This document shows positions 2,309-63,700 of a stretch of 64,000 bases of DNA, piece by piece (position 1 is the stretch's first letter; each line of letters begins with the position of its first letter). Position numbers and translations under genes: made by a program. The notes beneath the pieces were generated by a model. It saw nothing but the letters and a program-made list of their open reading frames with translations. It made no database searches and was not told the origin of the DNA. Source of the DNA: Octopus vulgaris (taxonomy: Eukaryota); assembly GCA_951406725.2 (NCBI GenBank), contig OX597823.1:99696001-99760000 (forward strand). Direction: 5' to 3'.

Positions 2309-3179
2309 GTAAAATTCCGTGTTTATGCTTCAGTATTTGCTTGTTTATTTACTTTGATGCATTTTGTAAATGCAGTTCACTGCATCAACTTGCATTCGGA
2401 GCTAGTTGCAAATTCATTATTAATGATAGTGCAACGTTACAGATTTTAGTATCACTCTCAAAATATAAATCAATTTTCTATAATTGGTTTGTTCAGGAAT
2501 ATTGAAACAGCTCTAAAAACAAAACCACAACAATTGTTCACGATATTTTTATCACCAAGCTGAATCTGAAAATAGATTTTCTCACACATACTAGAAATAT
2601 TTCTATTTCAGACTATTGGGAATTTTAACCAATGAAGAAGTCAAATATTTCTGGAATGATTCTTTTTTATTTTTGCTGATATTTTTGCATCTGATTTTAC
2701 TGCTTTTGGTTTTTTTTTCTCTCTCTTTTTTTTTTTTTTTTTTCCCCACAATTTGGATTGTTCAGTGTATTCAGATGTTTTCATAATTCCTTAGGAACAG
2801 ATCTTGCACTTTCTCACTCTGTTCAATTATTTACTATAAGAATGTGAAATCTTTTACTTTTTGTTCCTATCCAACTGTACCAAGTCATAGACTTTTCTTA
2901 GGTCGAATTTCACCCTTTTTCACAAATGATCTTTTAAATCAGTTGACCAAAACTTTGCTCACAACCCTTTTTAGGAAGCCAAAACTAGTGGAAGGGAGGA
3001 ATTTGAACCATGGACCCAAAAACTGGCTTCCAAAAGAATAAATTCCAAAAGGCACCTGAATACCAGGTGGGATGTTAAACTGGGCAATGAGTTGAGTCTG
3101 CCATCCAAATAAGTCATGGTGGGATTGCAAATTAAGAATGCAACAAGCTGGAACAAATACTGAAAGGCATTGTCTGCGA

Positions 3180-4770: not shown

Positions 4771-7061
4771 GATTGATATTGATTGTCTACCAAAAAATAG
4801 AATTTCTATTTTCTCTGAGTCTCATTGCCTCATAATAAATTTGACAGACCTTAGCAAAAACTAATTTGAAATCTGGCATACCTCTACAAAAGATAGACTG
4901 ATTTATAAAATTGCTCTCCATAGTTAACAGTAATAAAATTTTGAGTAGATTTCTTCTTTAAAAGGGTAAAGTAAGCTTAATGCCATTTTCAGATGAACTC
5001 TCTGTAAAGCCAATCATTCCGTCATTTAAATAATCAATGATATTGATACTTATCTGACATGGAAACGTATGTCTCAAAACAAATCTGGTCTATTGCCCCG
5101 CTTTTGTTGAATTTACTTTTAGAAATGTGTTATAGTCTTTAAAAAAAAAAATCCTTCTTTTCCATTTTAATTGGTAGTTATGTGATCAGTTTCTATGAGC
5201 TTCCAACAAATGGAATCAGCTTTTTTTTGATTCCCAGTTGATTAGCTTTGAGAAAATAAAGTGTATGAAGGTTGCAAATTTTCATCTCTATGAATATTTA
5301 ACATCAAAACTTTGTGTTTATTTTAAAGAGAAATAATTTCATCAAAAATGAGAATTTGTTTTTTGAAACCTAATTTCCCTGTTTAATCCTTGATAGATAT
5401 CTACACATGTTTTAATTTATGTTGTTATCAGTAACAATAATAATAATTACATGAAATAGAATGCAACAAATCTCTTCACTGCAGCAGTCTGCTGTGTTGT
5501 GTACTTTAATTTTTTTTACTCAAATTTATTTTGCAAACAAAAAAGGGAAAAATAGAAAAGAAAATACTATCAGTATATTTAAAAAAAAAAATTTTTGCTA
5601 TGCAATTTATATTTGTAAATATAAGTTCTCTAAAATGGTAAAAAAAAAAACCCAATTTTTAATTATCTTTGTATCTCAATGTCTTTTAAAAAATTTTTTT
5701 GGACCCTCCTATCTTGATGATTAACATTTAATTTTCGTTCCATGTTACTACAAAATGGTTGGCACCCAAAAGTAGGGAGTGATTCTGATAGTTTCACCAA
5801 AAGAAATCTCATAAGCTGTAGACAGACTAGTTTCGACCTGTAGTTTTGGGAATCTAATATTTCTTCATTTTAAGAATTTTATTTGTAAGGTTTCAAAATG
5901 CATTTTCTGTTTGTAACTACGTAGATGCTTCCATGGCTGGTACTTTAAAAAATGTTCTGCTAGTTCTTTTTAGATATTTTGGCAAAATATTTGGCACACT
6001 GTCAATTCCAAAAGCCTTCATGATTTTGGTGTTTTATAATACCTGTTAATTCCTCATTTGTCTCTTCCCTATTTTATTCTGATATTATTAAAAAAACTCT
6101 TTTGTTAATTTTTTTGGTTTTGTCTATGATGCATCCATGTATCTCACTATAAAAGACAAATGGAAATGAACCCAGATATTTTACAACAAAACACACATTC
6201 TGAAATCGAAAAAATAAAATAAATAAAAAAAGGAACAAAAACAACATTGTGACATTTTGTGAGAACATTGTGAGTTGTAGTTTTGGCTATGATACACACG
6301 CACGCACTTTACAGTTTTGTCAAAACTAGGTAATTCTGTGGGGTTTAAATGAAATCCAGTCAGGGGAAGAAGAACAATGTCACAAAAGAGTGTAGAGAAA
6401 AAATGTTCATACTTGCACCTCTTGAAAAATGAAGGGGCTTTCAGTGTATCCCCAACAAAGCAAGTCAAAGAATATTTGATGGCCATGTGAGATACTGTAC
6501 TTGCCATTGGCTGTAACTGAACATGTGGAAGTGTCTGCTTGGTCTGCAAGACCAAGGGTAAGTCAAAAGCACAGGCTGAGTTTTAGTGCCATAGACTGAA
6601 CCAGTGTGATGCAGAGGCCACAGCCAGGGACATTGCTATTGACATATAACTCTGGCTTGCTTCTTTTATAGCTCAGTATAGGCAGATGGTCACTGCATGG
6701 GGGACCAAAATTGTGTGGTTAGTAGGGATCAAAACCCTCCCAGAAACCCACCTTTTTTTTAGAATTGTTCAATCTCATTCATATTTTCTTATATTTCTAG
6801 TTATGCTCTGGTTCGGCTCTCATTGATCAGCAGTCTGTAGGTGTCCTAAAAATCTAGTTTATTTACTTCATTTGTTTCATACATTTTAGTTCTATTTTTA
6901 TGGCTTGTGTTTTCAAGGTTTTTATTTTCGTCGGCCATTTTGTGTTTGATATTTGTGTTAACATGGTGTATTCTTCTTTTATACATGTTCTGTTGCAATT
7001 TCTACTGTTTTCACTTTGGAAATATATCTTCTTAAATTAGCCAATTGGTTTGAATCCAGTG

Positions 7062-31910: not shown

Positions 31911-32113
31911 TTAACACTTTTAATACCAATTTACATGAGACCATCCTAGTTCTGTCAAAACTTCCTGTTTCAAAGTAATCTAATCAAAATCTTCCTTTAA
32001 AATTTCATGTTTTGTACCAAACACCACCTCCTCAAAAAAATGACACGATCATTAAATTCTTTGTTATTTTCAAAGTTAATTGAAACAGAAGCACTGTATT
32101 TCAACAGGGTTAA
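31911..32113 (-). mobile_element. TTAA MITE family P1
   Basis: TTAACACTTT...CAGGGTTAA ends; reverse complement of the P1 body. Confidence 0.72.
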
Positions 32114-35096: not shown

Positions 35097-35354
35097 ATGA
35101 ACGATTTTGTTACCATATTTCTAATGACATATACTCTCCAACTGTTTTAAATAATTTTTCATACACAATCAAGAATTTGGAGGGGTTTAGTATTATTATT
35201 ATTATTATCAATGTAGTGTTAGGAACCTAAAAAAAAAAGGTTCTGGATGAAACTTTTGGTGGAAGCTTTAAATTTAATCGTGAACACTTCAAAGTGTATA
35301 TTTTTTGTATCATTAGACAAGGGTGGTCACATGGGTTGGAATCAAAAGGTTTAA
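35097..35354 (+). mobile_element. TTAA MITE family P1, decayed
   Basis: TTTGTTACCATATTTCT...GGGTTGGAATCAAAAGGTTTAA. Confidence 0.6.
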
Positions 35355-40338: not shown

Positions 40339-41712
40339 TTATGTGTGTGTGTTTGAGTAGACTTGTGAGATTTACTCATTGCTTAATTTGCTTCCCGGTG
40401 GCGTTAGCAATGGTCTGCTTGACATTGCAGTGTGACTTACTATCAGTAGTAAATTGTTTCATATTCGTCTGCCTGTTTTCAACTAATCTCTCTTGGCTCG
40501 CTTCCCAGCTGTCATTCACAGCAATCTAAAAGTATCATTTGATGTCAAACAAAACATTTCTTTCGGTCGGTTGCTCACATTAGTTCAGATTGTCAAATCA
40601 GACACTGAGGCAAGCTGTACTTCAACCACTCAATATTTGCATTGTTCTTGCTATGCACTTACCTGCTTTATTCTTCATTTTTACTATTTTTATTTGCAAA
40701 TGAGATTTCAGAGATAGAGAGAAAGAGTTGTGTGAAAGTAAAATTGATTAAAGCACACTTGACATGTGTTCAAACTTTGTTCTTGTGCAAGAAAGTTTAC
40801 TTTGCTTAAAACAAAATCTAAGAACTTCAATACTACTACTCACATGACATGATTGAATAGTTAGCTGTAAGAAGTGCATCCTGCTATCAAACATGTACCC
40901 AAAGAATTTACATATTTACGCTTGGAAGTGTGTAACAATAACTCATAAAAGAAGAAAACTAACAGAGACATTATTAGCAAAGAGACATTAGCACTGAACA
41001 AAGAAACTTTAAGAGAAGAATTTACAGCGGTTGATTCATCTTGTGAAGGAACAGAACATCTAGTGAATAGCAAATTAGTGACTGATGTAAAAGTTTGTGG
41101 CCTTATAAATGAAAAGACAGGTGTGTGTGTGTGTATGCTTATGTACATATTCAGTGACTATGTTTACATGATTCATTGTAGTTTTTGTGTGTGTGTTGAT
41201 GGTGAAGCAATTTTGATTTGGGTTCCAATCAACAAATTCAATAATTATGTAACTAGAAACTTTACCGTGGAATGTTACATTTCAGAGCATACAAGTTGAA
41301 GACAAGATCTGAAGTTAAATTGACTGACTGCGATTTTCATTCAATTGCTTAAAAGAAATGTGATAGATTTGGTTTTTCAAGTTTTGCAATGTCTGTGTTG
41401 ACTGACAGAATGTTATTGAAATATGAAAGGCACTTAACTTTTGTTGAAATTTACTACAAATATTTGAATTTACAGAACATCCCAAACACATTCAATATTT
41501 TCTTCTATCTGAAGTTTTTCTTTCACTTAAAGAACTTTCATTTTCATCCTGCATCTCTTACATCTCTGACGCCTTCTTTAACCCGTTTCATATCAACCAG
41601 TCTGAAACCAATGGTGGCTTTATCATAAAAATTTCCAGTTTTAAAATGATGTAAAACCATCCTTCAAACGTTTGTCACTATTCAAACATAAATTAACAAA
41701 GTTATTTCATTA

Positions 41713-42027
41713 TTCCAGTTCTATATTTAAGAGATGAGGAATTATGTACATTATTTACATTTGATGGATATTTGTCCTCATCTTGTTTGTTGCTAACACA
41801 ACGTTTCAGCTGATATACTCTCCAGCCTTCATCAGGTGTCATGGGGAAATTTCAAACCTGGGTTCTCATTCCTAAGGTATTTTTCGATGTTGTTGTTATT
41901 ATTATCATTGTTCATTCAGGTCACTGCCTACGCCATATGCCTGTGGGTATGAGCATGGGTATATCAGCTGGAAAGTTGTGTTAACAACAAACAAGATGAG
42001 GACAAATATCCATCAAATGTAAATAAT
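41713..42027 (-). mobile_element. Short non-autonomous Penelope-like retroelement with hammerhead ribozyme and inverted partial terminal repeat
   Basis: 12-bp TSD GTTATTTCATTA (41701-41712, 42028-42039); 71-bp inverted repeat (41748-41818 / 41959-42029, 3 mismatches); hammerhead core on minus strand. Confidence 0.8.
41795..41840 (-). ncRNA. Minimal type I hammerhead ribozyme (Penelope-type)
   Basis: Minus strand: GACAC-CUGAUGA-A-GGCUG-gagaguauau-CAGCU-GAAA-CG-UU^GUGUU. Stem I GACAC/GUGUU, stem II GGCUG/CAGCU, loopless palindromic stem III (AACGUU), predicted cleavage after GUU (41800^41799). Confidence 0.78.
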
Positions 42028-42214
42028 GTTATTTCATTAAATTCTTTATTTTCAAAATTAATTGAAACAAATGTAGTGTATTTCTAATGAAATATGGTAA
42101 CAAATGGGTTAATGAGGCAATGGGCTGTCAATGGTTTTGAATTCACGTTCAACATATCAGATATGATCTACTGTTAAGGCAAATGTCAATTCTTTTTTTT
42201 TTTTTTTGTCATTA

Positions 42215-42608
42215 CTAGCAGTATCGCCTGGCGTTGCTCGGGTTTGTAAGGGAAATAACTATATAAGCATTTTTAGAGAGTTATAGCCAAAAGATAGCAA
42301 AAAAATGCATTAAAAATGGGAAAAAAATGGTTAAATTTTTTTTAAATCGTTGACTCATCGTAGACATTTTTAGAGAGTTACTTCCCTTATATAATAGCGA
42401 AAAAATGCATTAAAATGGGAAAAAATTATGGTAAATTTTTTCTAAATCGTAGACTCATCGTAGATGTGTGCTTATACCCAGAAGGGATCGATATGAATCA
42501 CAACTATAAGATACCCGGCTTTGGTTAAACTGCACCGCAAAATGTGGGAGTAGTTAGGAATCTAAATCGTAGGAGACAGACACACAACTTGACTTTTATA
42601 TATAAAGA
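42215..42608 (-). mobile_element. Non-autonomous Helitron, second full copy
   Basis: Same TC...CTAG termini, A|T target and hairpin as 10189-10589; unrelated flanks. Confidence 0.88.
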
Positions 42609-43317
42609 TTTCTAAATTAGAATGTTGTGAATCTTCTTTTCCTCTTTCTTATCATCACTGGTTATATGTACATTTTAAAATCTCGGCACAAATTAATCTC
42701 TGTATTGCTAAATCCAATATCATTCCTTTCATAAAAATTTTCTGATATCTGTTGCCACTAGCCTTTCCCAGATTTTAGTTTTAATTACTTTTGCCAGGCC
42801 TTTAAGACTAGCAACATTATTATGGTTGTTGATCCATTTGAATTTTGGGAAGTTGATGTCTGTGAGAAAGACAAAAGCAGGGAAAGAAATCCAAACATTT
42901 GCAATTGTGGGTGGAAAGATTGAGAAAAGTCTGAAAATTTGCATTTATTTTTAAGGTGGGACATAAAAGGGACAATGAATGGGAAAAGGAAAAATGGGTG
43001 CATCAGGGGGTTCATATGACTGAGAAGGGAGGCACATTCAGAAGAATAACAAAAGGTGGGGGTTGATTATAATCAGTTCTCTTAGCTTTAAAATGTTGGA
43101 AGTGAAAATAATGATGATGATGACATCAGTCTTTCTCTCTCACTTGATCTAAAACAGTTCTGAATCATTTTAATATTTTGTTTGAGTTTAGCAATTAACA
43201 CATTCACTCTTTATTTTATTCTTTCTTTTAAGAACTTTAAAAATAAAGGCCAAAAGAAATAGTTAATAGCATGTATATGTATATGTTAAAAAATTTGCAA
43301 ATGTAAATTATCTGTCA

Positions 43318-50084: not shown

Positions 50085-50290
50085 GAAACCTTTCGATACC
50101 AATCTGTCTGAGATCCCCCCCTCATCCCTCCGTTCTATAATTCCAACTCCCTGTTTTAAAACTTTCCATCAAAATTTTAGGTTTCAACCACTCGCTTAAT
50201 AATGAGTTATTTTACTAAATTCTTTATTTTAAAAATTAATCGAAATGAAGGCAGTATTTTTCAGCAGAAATATTGTAACAAATGGGTTCA
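50085..50290 (-). mobile_element. TTAA MITE family P1
   Basis: ACCTTTCGATACCAA...ATTGTAACAAATGGGTTCA. Confidence 0.7.
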
Positions 50291-51002: not shown

Positions 51003-51092
51003 GAAATAGGACAGACAGCTAGGTTGCTGAAAAAGTTCTTCCCAGCCTTAGTCAAAGCATAATGAAGGAGTAGTTTGTATATTGTGGCTATT

Positions 51093-51304
51093 TAAGCCAT
51101 TTGTTATCCTGTTCCTTTTGAAATACAATTTGTTTCAATTAATTTTTAAAATTAATGAAGAATTTAGTAAAAAAAAAATGTCATTATTAAGTTGGTGTTC
51201 AAACATAAATTAGTCTGAAATTTTGATGGAAAATTTCAATTTAATTCACTTCAAAACAAGAAATCCATGAGAGACAATTTCAAGTAGGTTGGTATTAAAA
51301 GGGT
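51093..51304 (+). mobile_element. TTAA MITE family P1
   Basis: GAAGAATTTAGTAAAA..TCATTATTAAGTTGGTGTT..GGTTGGTATTAAAAGGGT. Confidence 0.7.
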
Positions 51305-60222: not shown

Positions 60223-60534
60223 AATTTTTCTCATTGTAAGATTTCTATTTCTGACCTTCCCCTTCATTGTTTCAAAGGCTACAGATGCTGCTGTTCCCAG
60301 TTATGATTCAAATGAAATAATAATTTAATAATATAATTATGATCTGAAAAAAGAATACATTTTAGGTGAATATGCTTTTCTCACGAGAAAGATTTCATTT
60401 TAATTTGTTTTTCCAGTGATTTATAATGGTTAAATGCTTTTTGTTTAGTTTTTAATAGTTGTGGAAGGAAAATAGCAGGAACAACATTGCTACTCTTCAT
60501 AAAACTAGCAAACTCGAAACAGTTGATATAGGAT

Positions 60535-60733
60535 TAAACCCTTTCGATACCAACATGCCTGAAATTCCCCCCTTGCTGCTTCTATCGTATAAAATTTCTA
60601 TTTTAAAGTGATATAAATTCAATCATTTCATCAAAAGTTCATGTTAATTTCTTTCAGACACCATCTTTGATGATAAAGATATTTTTGAAATAAAGACATT
60701 GTATGCTATAGAAATGTGATAAGAAGAGAGTTA
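60535..60733 (-). mobile_element. TTAA MITE family P1
   Basis: TTAAACCCTTTCGATACCAAC left end; reverse-complement P1 body. Confidence 0.65.
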
Positions 60734-63470: not shown

Positions 63471-63700
63471 TTAACCATTATACAACCATGTTTCTGTTGA
63501 AATACACTATCCTTGTTTTAATTAATTTTGAAATTAATGAAGAATTTAGTAAAATAACTACCGTTATTAAGCTGGTGTTTGGAACAGAAATTAATTTGAA
63601 ATTTTGACAGAACGTTTTAACTTAGAATTTCTTCAAAACAAGAAGTCTATAGCCTAGAACCAGATGTGATTTCAGGTAGGTTGGTATCAAATAGGTTGAA
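63471..63700 (+). mobile_element. TTAA MITE family P1
   Basis: TTAACCATT..TTTCTGTTGAAATACAC..GAAGAATTTAGTAAAATAAC..GGTTGGTATCAAATAGGTTGAA. Confidence 0.78.

Follow-up and report, generated by a model that had tools for sequence, protein, structure and literature searches.

The insert at positions 41713-42027 of the window (the whole 64,000-nucleotide stretch of Octopus vulgaris DNA that was analysed) appears to be a decayed head-to-head insertion of a Penelope pLTR, and we lean towards its tRNA-derived A/B-box head being a Pol III promoter that sets the RNA start. Very probably the locus itself is a disrupted solo-pLTR insertion left by a Penelope element, of a kind already known. What is new is a Poseidon-type unit that begins with a tRNA-derived promoter-like head, and it is at this head that most of the copies reaching it begin.

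Structure of the insert

The locus is made up of the following features.

41578..42112: host MITE with TTAA at both ends, ~208 bp when empty, split by the insert
41701..41712, plus strand: left TSD, 12 bp, GTTATTTCATTA, identical to the right copy
41713-42027: insert, 315 bp, between perfect 12-bp TSD copies
41714..41869, minus strand: N-terminal 52 codons of the Penelope ORF, with the ATG at 41869-41867 and a stop at codon 6
41716..41749, minus strand: 34-nt Penelope tail, the start of the element body, on one arm only
41716..41947, minus strand: direct arm, consisting of a solo pLTR and tail from a Poseidon-type Penelope and starting ~5 nt before the tRNA-like head
41795..41840, minus strand: minimal type I hammerhead, its core motifs and stems read from the sequence, matching the min-HHR features of PMC4209133
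about 41887..41916, minus strand: (AAT/AAC)n spacer, predicted to lie in the 5′ UTR, its length varying across copies
41917..41927, minus strand: head positions 64-74, by comparison with the family majority
41928..41942, minus strand: head positions 0-14, the start of the tRNA-like segment and a truncated A box
41948..41956: arm junction, which by eye looks like the head start in inverted, decayed form (compared with L002, L006 and L029)
41957..42027, plus strand: inverted arm, pLTR positions ~169-239, without the tail
42028..42039, plus strand: right TSD, 12 bp, GTTATTTCATTA, identical to the left copy

The preliminary description reported a 315-bp insert inside a MITE with a perfect 12-bp TSD, and this was borne out, the copies at 41701-41712 and 42028-42039 being identical. 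When the insert was excised in silico, 10 other copies of the MITE, which we take to be piggyBac-like, spanned the junction at 66-74% identity with a single TSD region. An empty allele of the insertion locus was not seen among the sequences examined. The window holds more partial copies of this TTAA-ended MITE, at 50198-50288, 63485-63558, 51092-51175, 32049-32102, 1980-2022, 35106-35158 and 60534-60617, and a further repeat with internal direct repeats of ~100 bp and a short inverted repeat lies downstream at 42215-42610.

All of the motifs quoted earlier for the minus strand are present on that strand, with the head remnant at 41942-41917, CTGATGA at 41835-41829 and GAAACGTT at 41807-41800. 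The proposed inverted 71-bp copy of the tail stood only in part: there are inverted arms of 71 nt that are 96% complementary (41748-41818 and 41959-42029), but what is copied is the 3′ half of the hammerhead plus ~50 nt, without the last 34 nt. The insert as a whole folds no better than chance (z −0.16), and the window copy is typical of the family's inverted-insertion class.

The hammerhead is composed of stem I (GACAC/GTGTT), CUGAUGA, an extra A, stem II, GAAA and a palindromic ACGU stem III, with a predicted cut between 41800 and 41799. The family pLTR shows the minimal type I features of core, extra base after A9, G10.1-C11.1 and palindromic stem III. The window copy had been called a complete minimal hammerhead; its core motifs and stems are indeed there, but a G-U pair replaces the G10.1-C11.1 pair conserved in the family and Rfam is silent. 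Rfam hammerhead models gave no match at the locus or in intact copies, nor in six loci of the family or when the search regions were narrowed; the feature is called a ribozyme from the core motifs and stems that can be read in the sequence. The minimum-energy structure was not the hammerhead fold, and arm starts did not pile up at the predicted cut site, a point on which the sampling is weak. Earlier work has already described pLTRs with minimal hammerheads, as well as solo copies and pairs on opposite strands (PMC4209133). A second hammerhead-like motif (CTGATGA...GAAAC) occurs in an unrelated repeat at L064:2580-2630, suggesting that another Penelope-like family is present in the genome.

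The autonomous element and its copies

Mobilisation of the insert by a Penelope RT/GIY-YIG protein, as proposed in the preliminary description, was judged right, and an autonomous partner exists. The 2.3-kb upstream ORF of this element carries an RT domain (PF00078, E 1e-10), and at its C-terminus it can be aligned to the GIY-YIG-type region found in relatives, though Pfam itself gave no name to the nuclease part; 372 longer homologs were found, and the close relatives P0001-P0016 have 54-68% identity. We provisionally assign the element to the Poseidon-type Penelopes from the order of its domains and because no zinc finger is apparent in the linker. The reading frame passes from the pLTR ATG through the hammerhead and the tail into the body, and in full-length copies the 34-nt tail continues directly into the element body. 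The N-terminal peptide of the window copy matches protein P0009 (E 7e-6), as does the N-terminus of copy L163 (46% over 111 aa, E 1e-27). This frame and match place the head at the 5′-most part of the coding unit, and what had been described as an ~80-nt tail after the hammerhead is in fact protein-coding, the start of the Penelope ORF. At the other end, 20 of the 20 loci that reach the ORF 3′ end, out of 30 chosen with a distant protein, run into the head 38 nt after the stop. The same layout was seen in another set of loci, the query for which included part of the head. The order of the unit is thus head, (AAT)n, ATG, hammerhead, ORF (RT, GIY-YIG), stop, 38 nt and head again. Three full-length copies (L238, L251 and L163) have a direct pLTR piece upstream, but in none of them does it reach the head, which counts against the Pol III reading. 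The linker that follows the stop codon, at −20..−3 before the head (e.g., in L050), looks like the head start in decayed reverse complement, as though fold-back had given rise to the master element. Another repeat has often inserted into the AAT tract (L039, L042, L045, L050, L056 and L098), and many solo copies start within AAT microsatellites.

The genome searched (2.8 Gb, 227 contigs) holds 2,205 candidate relatives of the insert. Exact matches numbered 1,690 for the 34-nt hammerhead core and 4,006 for the 21-nt head motif, with 0 for the reversed controls. As only 16/66 arms covering the head motif match it exactly, the 4,006 matches imply roughly 16,000 or more head-bearing arms, and the window locus is one broken copy among roughly tens of thousands. 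Copies are laid out mostly as single units or inverted pairs; partial tandems are only occasional and head-to-tail arrays are not the rule. No excess of A-to-G changes, as editing before reverse transcription would leave, was found (A>G 0.0136, T>C 0.0161).

The insert had been put forward as a SINE/retrozyme hybrid, transcribed by Pol III and self-cleaving. Taken as an independent unit, its short copies would be transcribed alone by Pol III and form a separate lineage using Penelope enzymes. Short copies do far outnumber ORF-linked ones, with 12 of 90 mapped insertions extending to the linker or ORF, and they carry an internal promoter-like head. Additionally, the paired arms of an insertion share derived bases above chance (36 in 77 pairs, a rate of 0.0055 vs 0.0024, with a maximum of 0.0041 in 1,000 shuffles), which allows some template variety or gene conversion. 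However, the whole unit is the pLTR plus ORF start of the autonomous element, and among 101 short and 40 ORF-linked arms 0/257 columns were diagnostic after correction, the smallest P (0.005) falling at a CpG site. Divergence from the majority is similar, at 5.4% and 6.2%, respectively. Retrozyme-type tandem arrays are not the rule, and the PAc protein of Anolis needs RNA downstream in the ORF that the solo copies are without. A separate hybrid is therefore quite improbable. Two other classifications fit poorly: a non-coding tRNA-derived SINE lineage sharing only the 3′ tail, because the whole unit is coding and common to the autonomous element, and a non-LTR retrozyme, because copies are mostly single or in inverted pairs rather than in non-coding head-to-tail tandem arrays.

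The tRNA-derived head and the 5′ ends of copies

In the window copy, head positions 15-63 (49 nt, B box included) are deleted with a 2-nt microhomology at the breakpoint, so that the B box is gone and the A box is broken; the ORF of this copy stops at codon 6. Other family members carry full heads with intact A and B boxes. The earlier view of the head as a tRNA-derived A/B-box segment with its middle deleted held up well, as 6/6 intact heads tested match a sequence model of 11 host tRNAs (E 8e-7 to 2e-3). A structure-aware tRNA model scores the intact heads lower on the whole than the sequence model, suggesting that the cloverleaf has decayed; the family majority retains intact A and B boxes all the same. 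Rfam gave no tRNA match at the locus or in intact copies, nor in the six family loci or the narrowed search regions, and ARAGORN found no tRNA in the window or in the head majority. The best host tRNA was Arg (43.6, against a shuffled best of 29.4 ± 1.7) from a comparison set of 30 host tRNAs covering Arg, Ala, Thr, Cys, Lys and Glu only, with Ile, Asn, Ser and others outside it. A different tRNA-derived repeat head at L030:871-930 (minus strand) has an E of 7e-10 and beats the Penelope head on the tRNA model; it probably belongs to a host SINE.

We mapped 5′ ends in 90 insertions, the first among the 1,690 exact matches to the hammerhead core; this sample favours little-decayed copies on one contig. 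Ten have their end past position 112, 14 have it inside the AAT tract or directly behind it, 13 within the head and 41 at −17..+10, while 12 continue farther upstream. Among insertions reaching the head, 41/53 therefore end at its start (40/51 by automatic chaining, before L098, L120 and L143 were reassigned by hand). The hazard is 0.053/nt at the head start and 0.0039/nt inside the head, a 13.5-fold difference (P 4e-30, or 8e-16 with a generous background). In a second sample, selected by the head motif (30 loci with three overlapping ones dropped and two borderline alignments judged by eye), 22/27 end at the head start, 2 stop a little way inside it and 3 extend upstream. Because of a palindrome at this point, the 5′ end is resolved only to between −7 and −2. 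The family pile-up lies 10-15 nt before the A box; in SINEs, according to the accessible part of PMC8969392, the A box is 10-15 nt from the 5′ end.

The 3′ ends are also discrete, with 72 arms at position 282 and most others at 236-258. An inverted arm is present in 58/90 mapped insertions. An exact TSD of 8-17 nt flanks 36/78 inverted insertions, each with one tailed and one untailed arm, and 1/38 non-inverted insertions, though some of the 8-9-nt TSDs may be chance. The two discrete 3′ ends and one-sided tails match those of PMC11167929.

The sense majority of 2,630 nt holds 0 runs of T≥4 and 31 runs of A≥4. Null models give the absence of T runs a P of 0.03-0.10, a weak signal taken alone. 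With T content equal, the median is 0 T4 runs per kb for copies (n = 27) and 2.5 per kb for relatives (n = 59); the 59 relatives were drawn from 78 metagenome loci, and the copies and relatives compared are not independent. Taken together, the 5′ pile-up before the A box and the lack of TTTT in the 2.6-kb sense strand suggest that the RNA start is fixed by a Pol III promoter of tRNA origin. We judge a Pol III origin of the template RNA to be somewhat favoured on these sequence features, and Pol III transcription of the whole coding RNA to be unlikely.

It is possible, if less probable, that the copies are ordinary solo pLTRs in which the tRNA segment is a passenger relic and the pile-up reflects a chance Pol II start, or an RT stop or fold-back at a hairpin. 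An imperfect hairpin of −9.6 kcal/mol does span −16..+10 at the head start, and many inverted arms are joined at its palindrome. However, the pile-up remains in insertions without an inverted arm (8/12 end at the head start), the ends fall mostly at the hairpin loop or its 5′ side rather than at its base at +10, and the long copies L160 and L176 read through it. Solo and opposite-strand min-HHR copies have been described as truncated PLEs (PMC4209133), and Penelope RNA itself starts within the pLTR from a LINE-type promoter. In D. virilis this is a TATA-less internal promoter of Inr/DPE type (PMC2377424, in the part available), so a discrete start alone does not mean Pol III. Against a mere relic are the A and B boxes, intact in the majority despite the decayed cloverleaf, and the absent T4 runs. 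The T-run argument has a counter-example in a Poseidon-type family (L283:4850-5300 and L317:5050-5550) with no ORF T4, a very T-rich pLTR and no tRNA head.

One distant relative bears on the Pol III reading. The initial metagenome scan and the viral scan gave no relatives; L267, a metagenome contig (38% aa, protein P0033), carries a distant tandem Poseidon-type element at 2760-3030 and 5550-5741. Its layout is like the family's, with a stop, an A/B-box-like segment, (AAT)n and an ATG overlapping the hammerhead. Of 11 distinct regions lying upstream of a hammerhead, it is the one with both A and B motifs (0/2,200 in shuffles). On the tRNA model its head is the best of 13 relatives but falls short of significance (E 0.34). 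There are two T4 runs per unit and no T5. The head sequence is unlike the family head and its A-B spacing is longer, which we take to be reminiscent of an intron-bearing or long-arm tRNA. In the 3′ regions of relatives, A and B motifs were found in only 1/40, by a test that detects 5/21 of the family's own decayed copies.

Proposed mechanism and comparison with known systems

In the mechanism we propose, RNA would start 2-7 nt upstream of the head and run through the pLTR into the body. The element protein would cut AT-rich DNA on both strands, as shown for Anolis PAc, and cDNA would be primed internally, either where the pLTR ends or where the tail ends. Copying as far as the RNA 5′ end would yield a SINE-like piece of 250-290 nt, and priming at the pLTR/body junction of pLTR-started RNA could give the solo copies that end at the RNA start. 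Two such cDNAs, or fold-back at the short palindrome before the head, would then leave inverted arms within a TSD of 8-15 bp. Cutting by the hammerhead is predicted for the dimer only, and these copies could be made without it. The sharp 5′ pile-up would let the RNA start be read from the genome, and it agrees with the internal-priming model. A bolder version, which we offer tentatively and consider rather unlikely, is that the element is transcribed end-to-end by Pol III from a captured tRNA promoter, with the ORF purged of TTTT and the uncapped RNA translated from the (AAT/AAC)n leader. L267 would then be the same capture with a different tRNA, and the strategy would be one that recurs and has the making of SINE-like copies built in.

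PAc, a Poseidon element of Anolis, cuts and extends both strands at AT-rich sites, reverse transcribes from two internal sites that define the tail, and requires the ORF's first 172 nt; insertion in vitro proceeds without its hammerhead, which is assisted by the protein (Frangieh et al., PMC11167929). The PLE tail and inverted copies have already been described (PMC8557442, accessible part). Like the EN+ Penelope/Poseidon elements in those two sources (PMC11167929 and the accessible part of PMC8557442), our family has a single ORF with RT plus GIY-YIG at its C-terminus, a minimal-hammerhead pLTR, an ORF start near the hammerhead, a one-sided tail of 30-40 nt, inverted truncated copies and AT-rich targets. 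Unlike them, its pLTR has a tRNA-derived A/B-box head with a 5′ pile-up, and its sense strand is without T4.

The SINE-like repeats SMalpha and Sjalpha of Schistosoma resemble the family in being short retroposons with a Pol III promoter followed by a hammerhead. They are non-coding tandem repeats with a canonical hammerhead, whereas the family has a minimal hammerhead and the coding start of an autonomous Penelope (PMC6765202, in the part available). Animal non-LTR retrozymes are likewise short hammerhead units related to PLE pLTRs, from which they are proposed to derive, and are thought to be moved by PLEs (PMC7229834; bioRxiv 10.64898/2026.07.22.740005; available portions of both). Retrozymes are tandem and form circular RNA, whereas family copies are mostly single or inverted pairs matching the autonomous pLTR. 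In its accessible text the bioRxiv report mentions neither tRNA, Pol III nor a promoter. If the proposed mechanism is true, it gives one route by which SINE-like hammerhead repeats such as SMalpha and retrozymes could arise directly from a Penelope end.

A Penelope with a tRNA-derived pLTR head did not appear in our full-text literature search, as far as the texts were accessible, and Repbase or Dfam may already catalogue the family. The available part of the octopus repeat annotation (PMC13282606) does not mention one, nor do those of PMC6962438, PMC8967140, PMC6155905, PMC8490949 and PMC4758252.

If the Pol III reading is true, the element is a natural case of a Pol III-type promoter starting a protein-coding retroelement RNA. 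Pol III output is normally non-coding RNA. Cassandra TRIMs, like the family, carry a Pol III promoter from a cellular RNA gene in a terminal repeat; unlike it, theirs is 5S-derived, and they are non-autonomous elements of the LTR class in plants. The octopus SINEs OK, OR1 and OR2, reportedly described by Ohshima and Okada in 1994, are said to have tRNA-derived heads, as the family does, and to depend on LINEs, and by that description are set apart from it. No CORE-type body is evident in the Penelope unit; OR2 is a CORE-SINE, according to the available part of PMC4758252.
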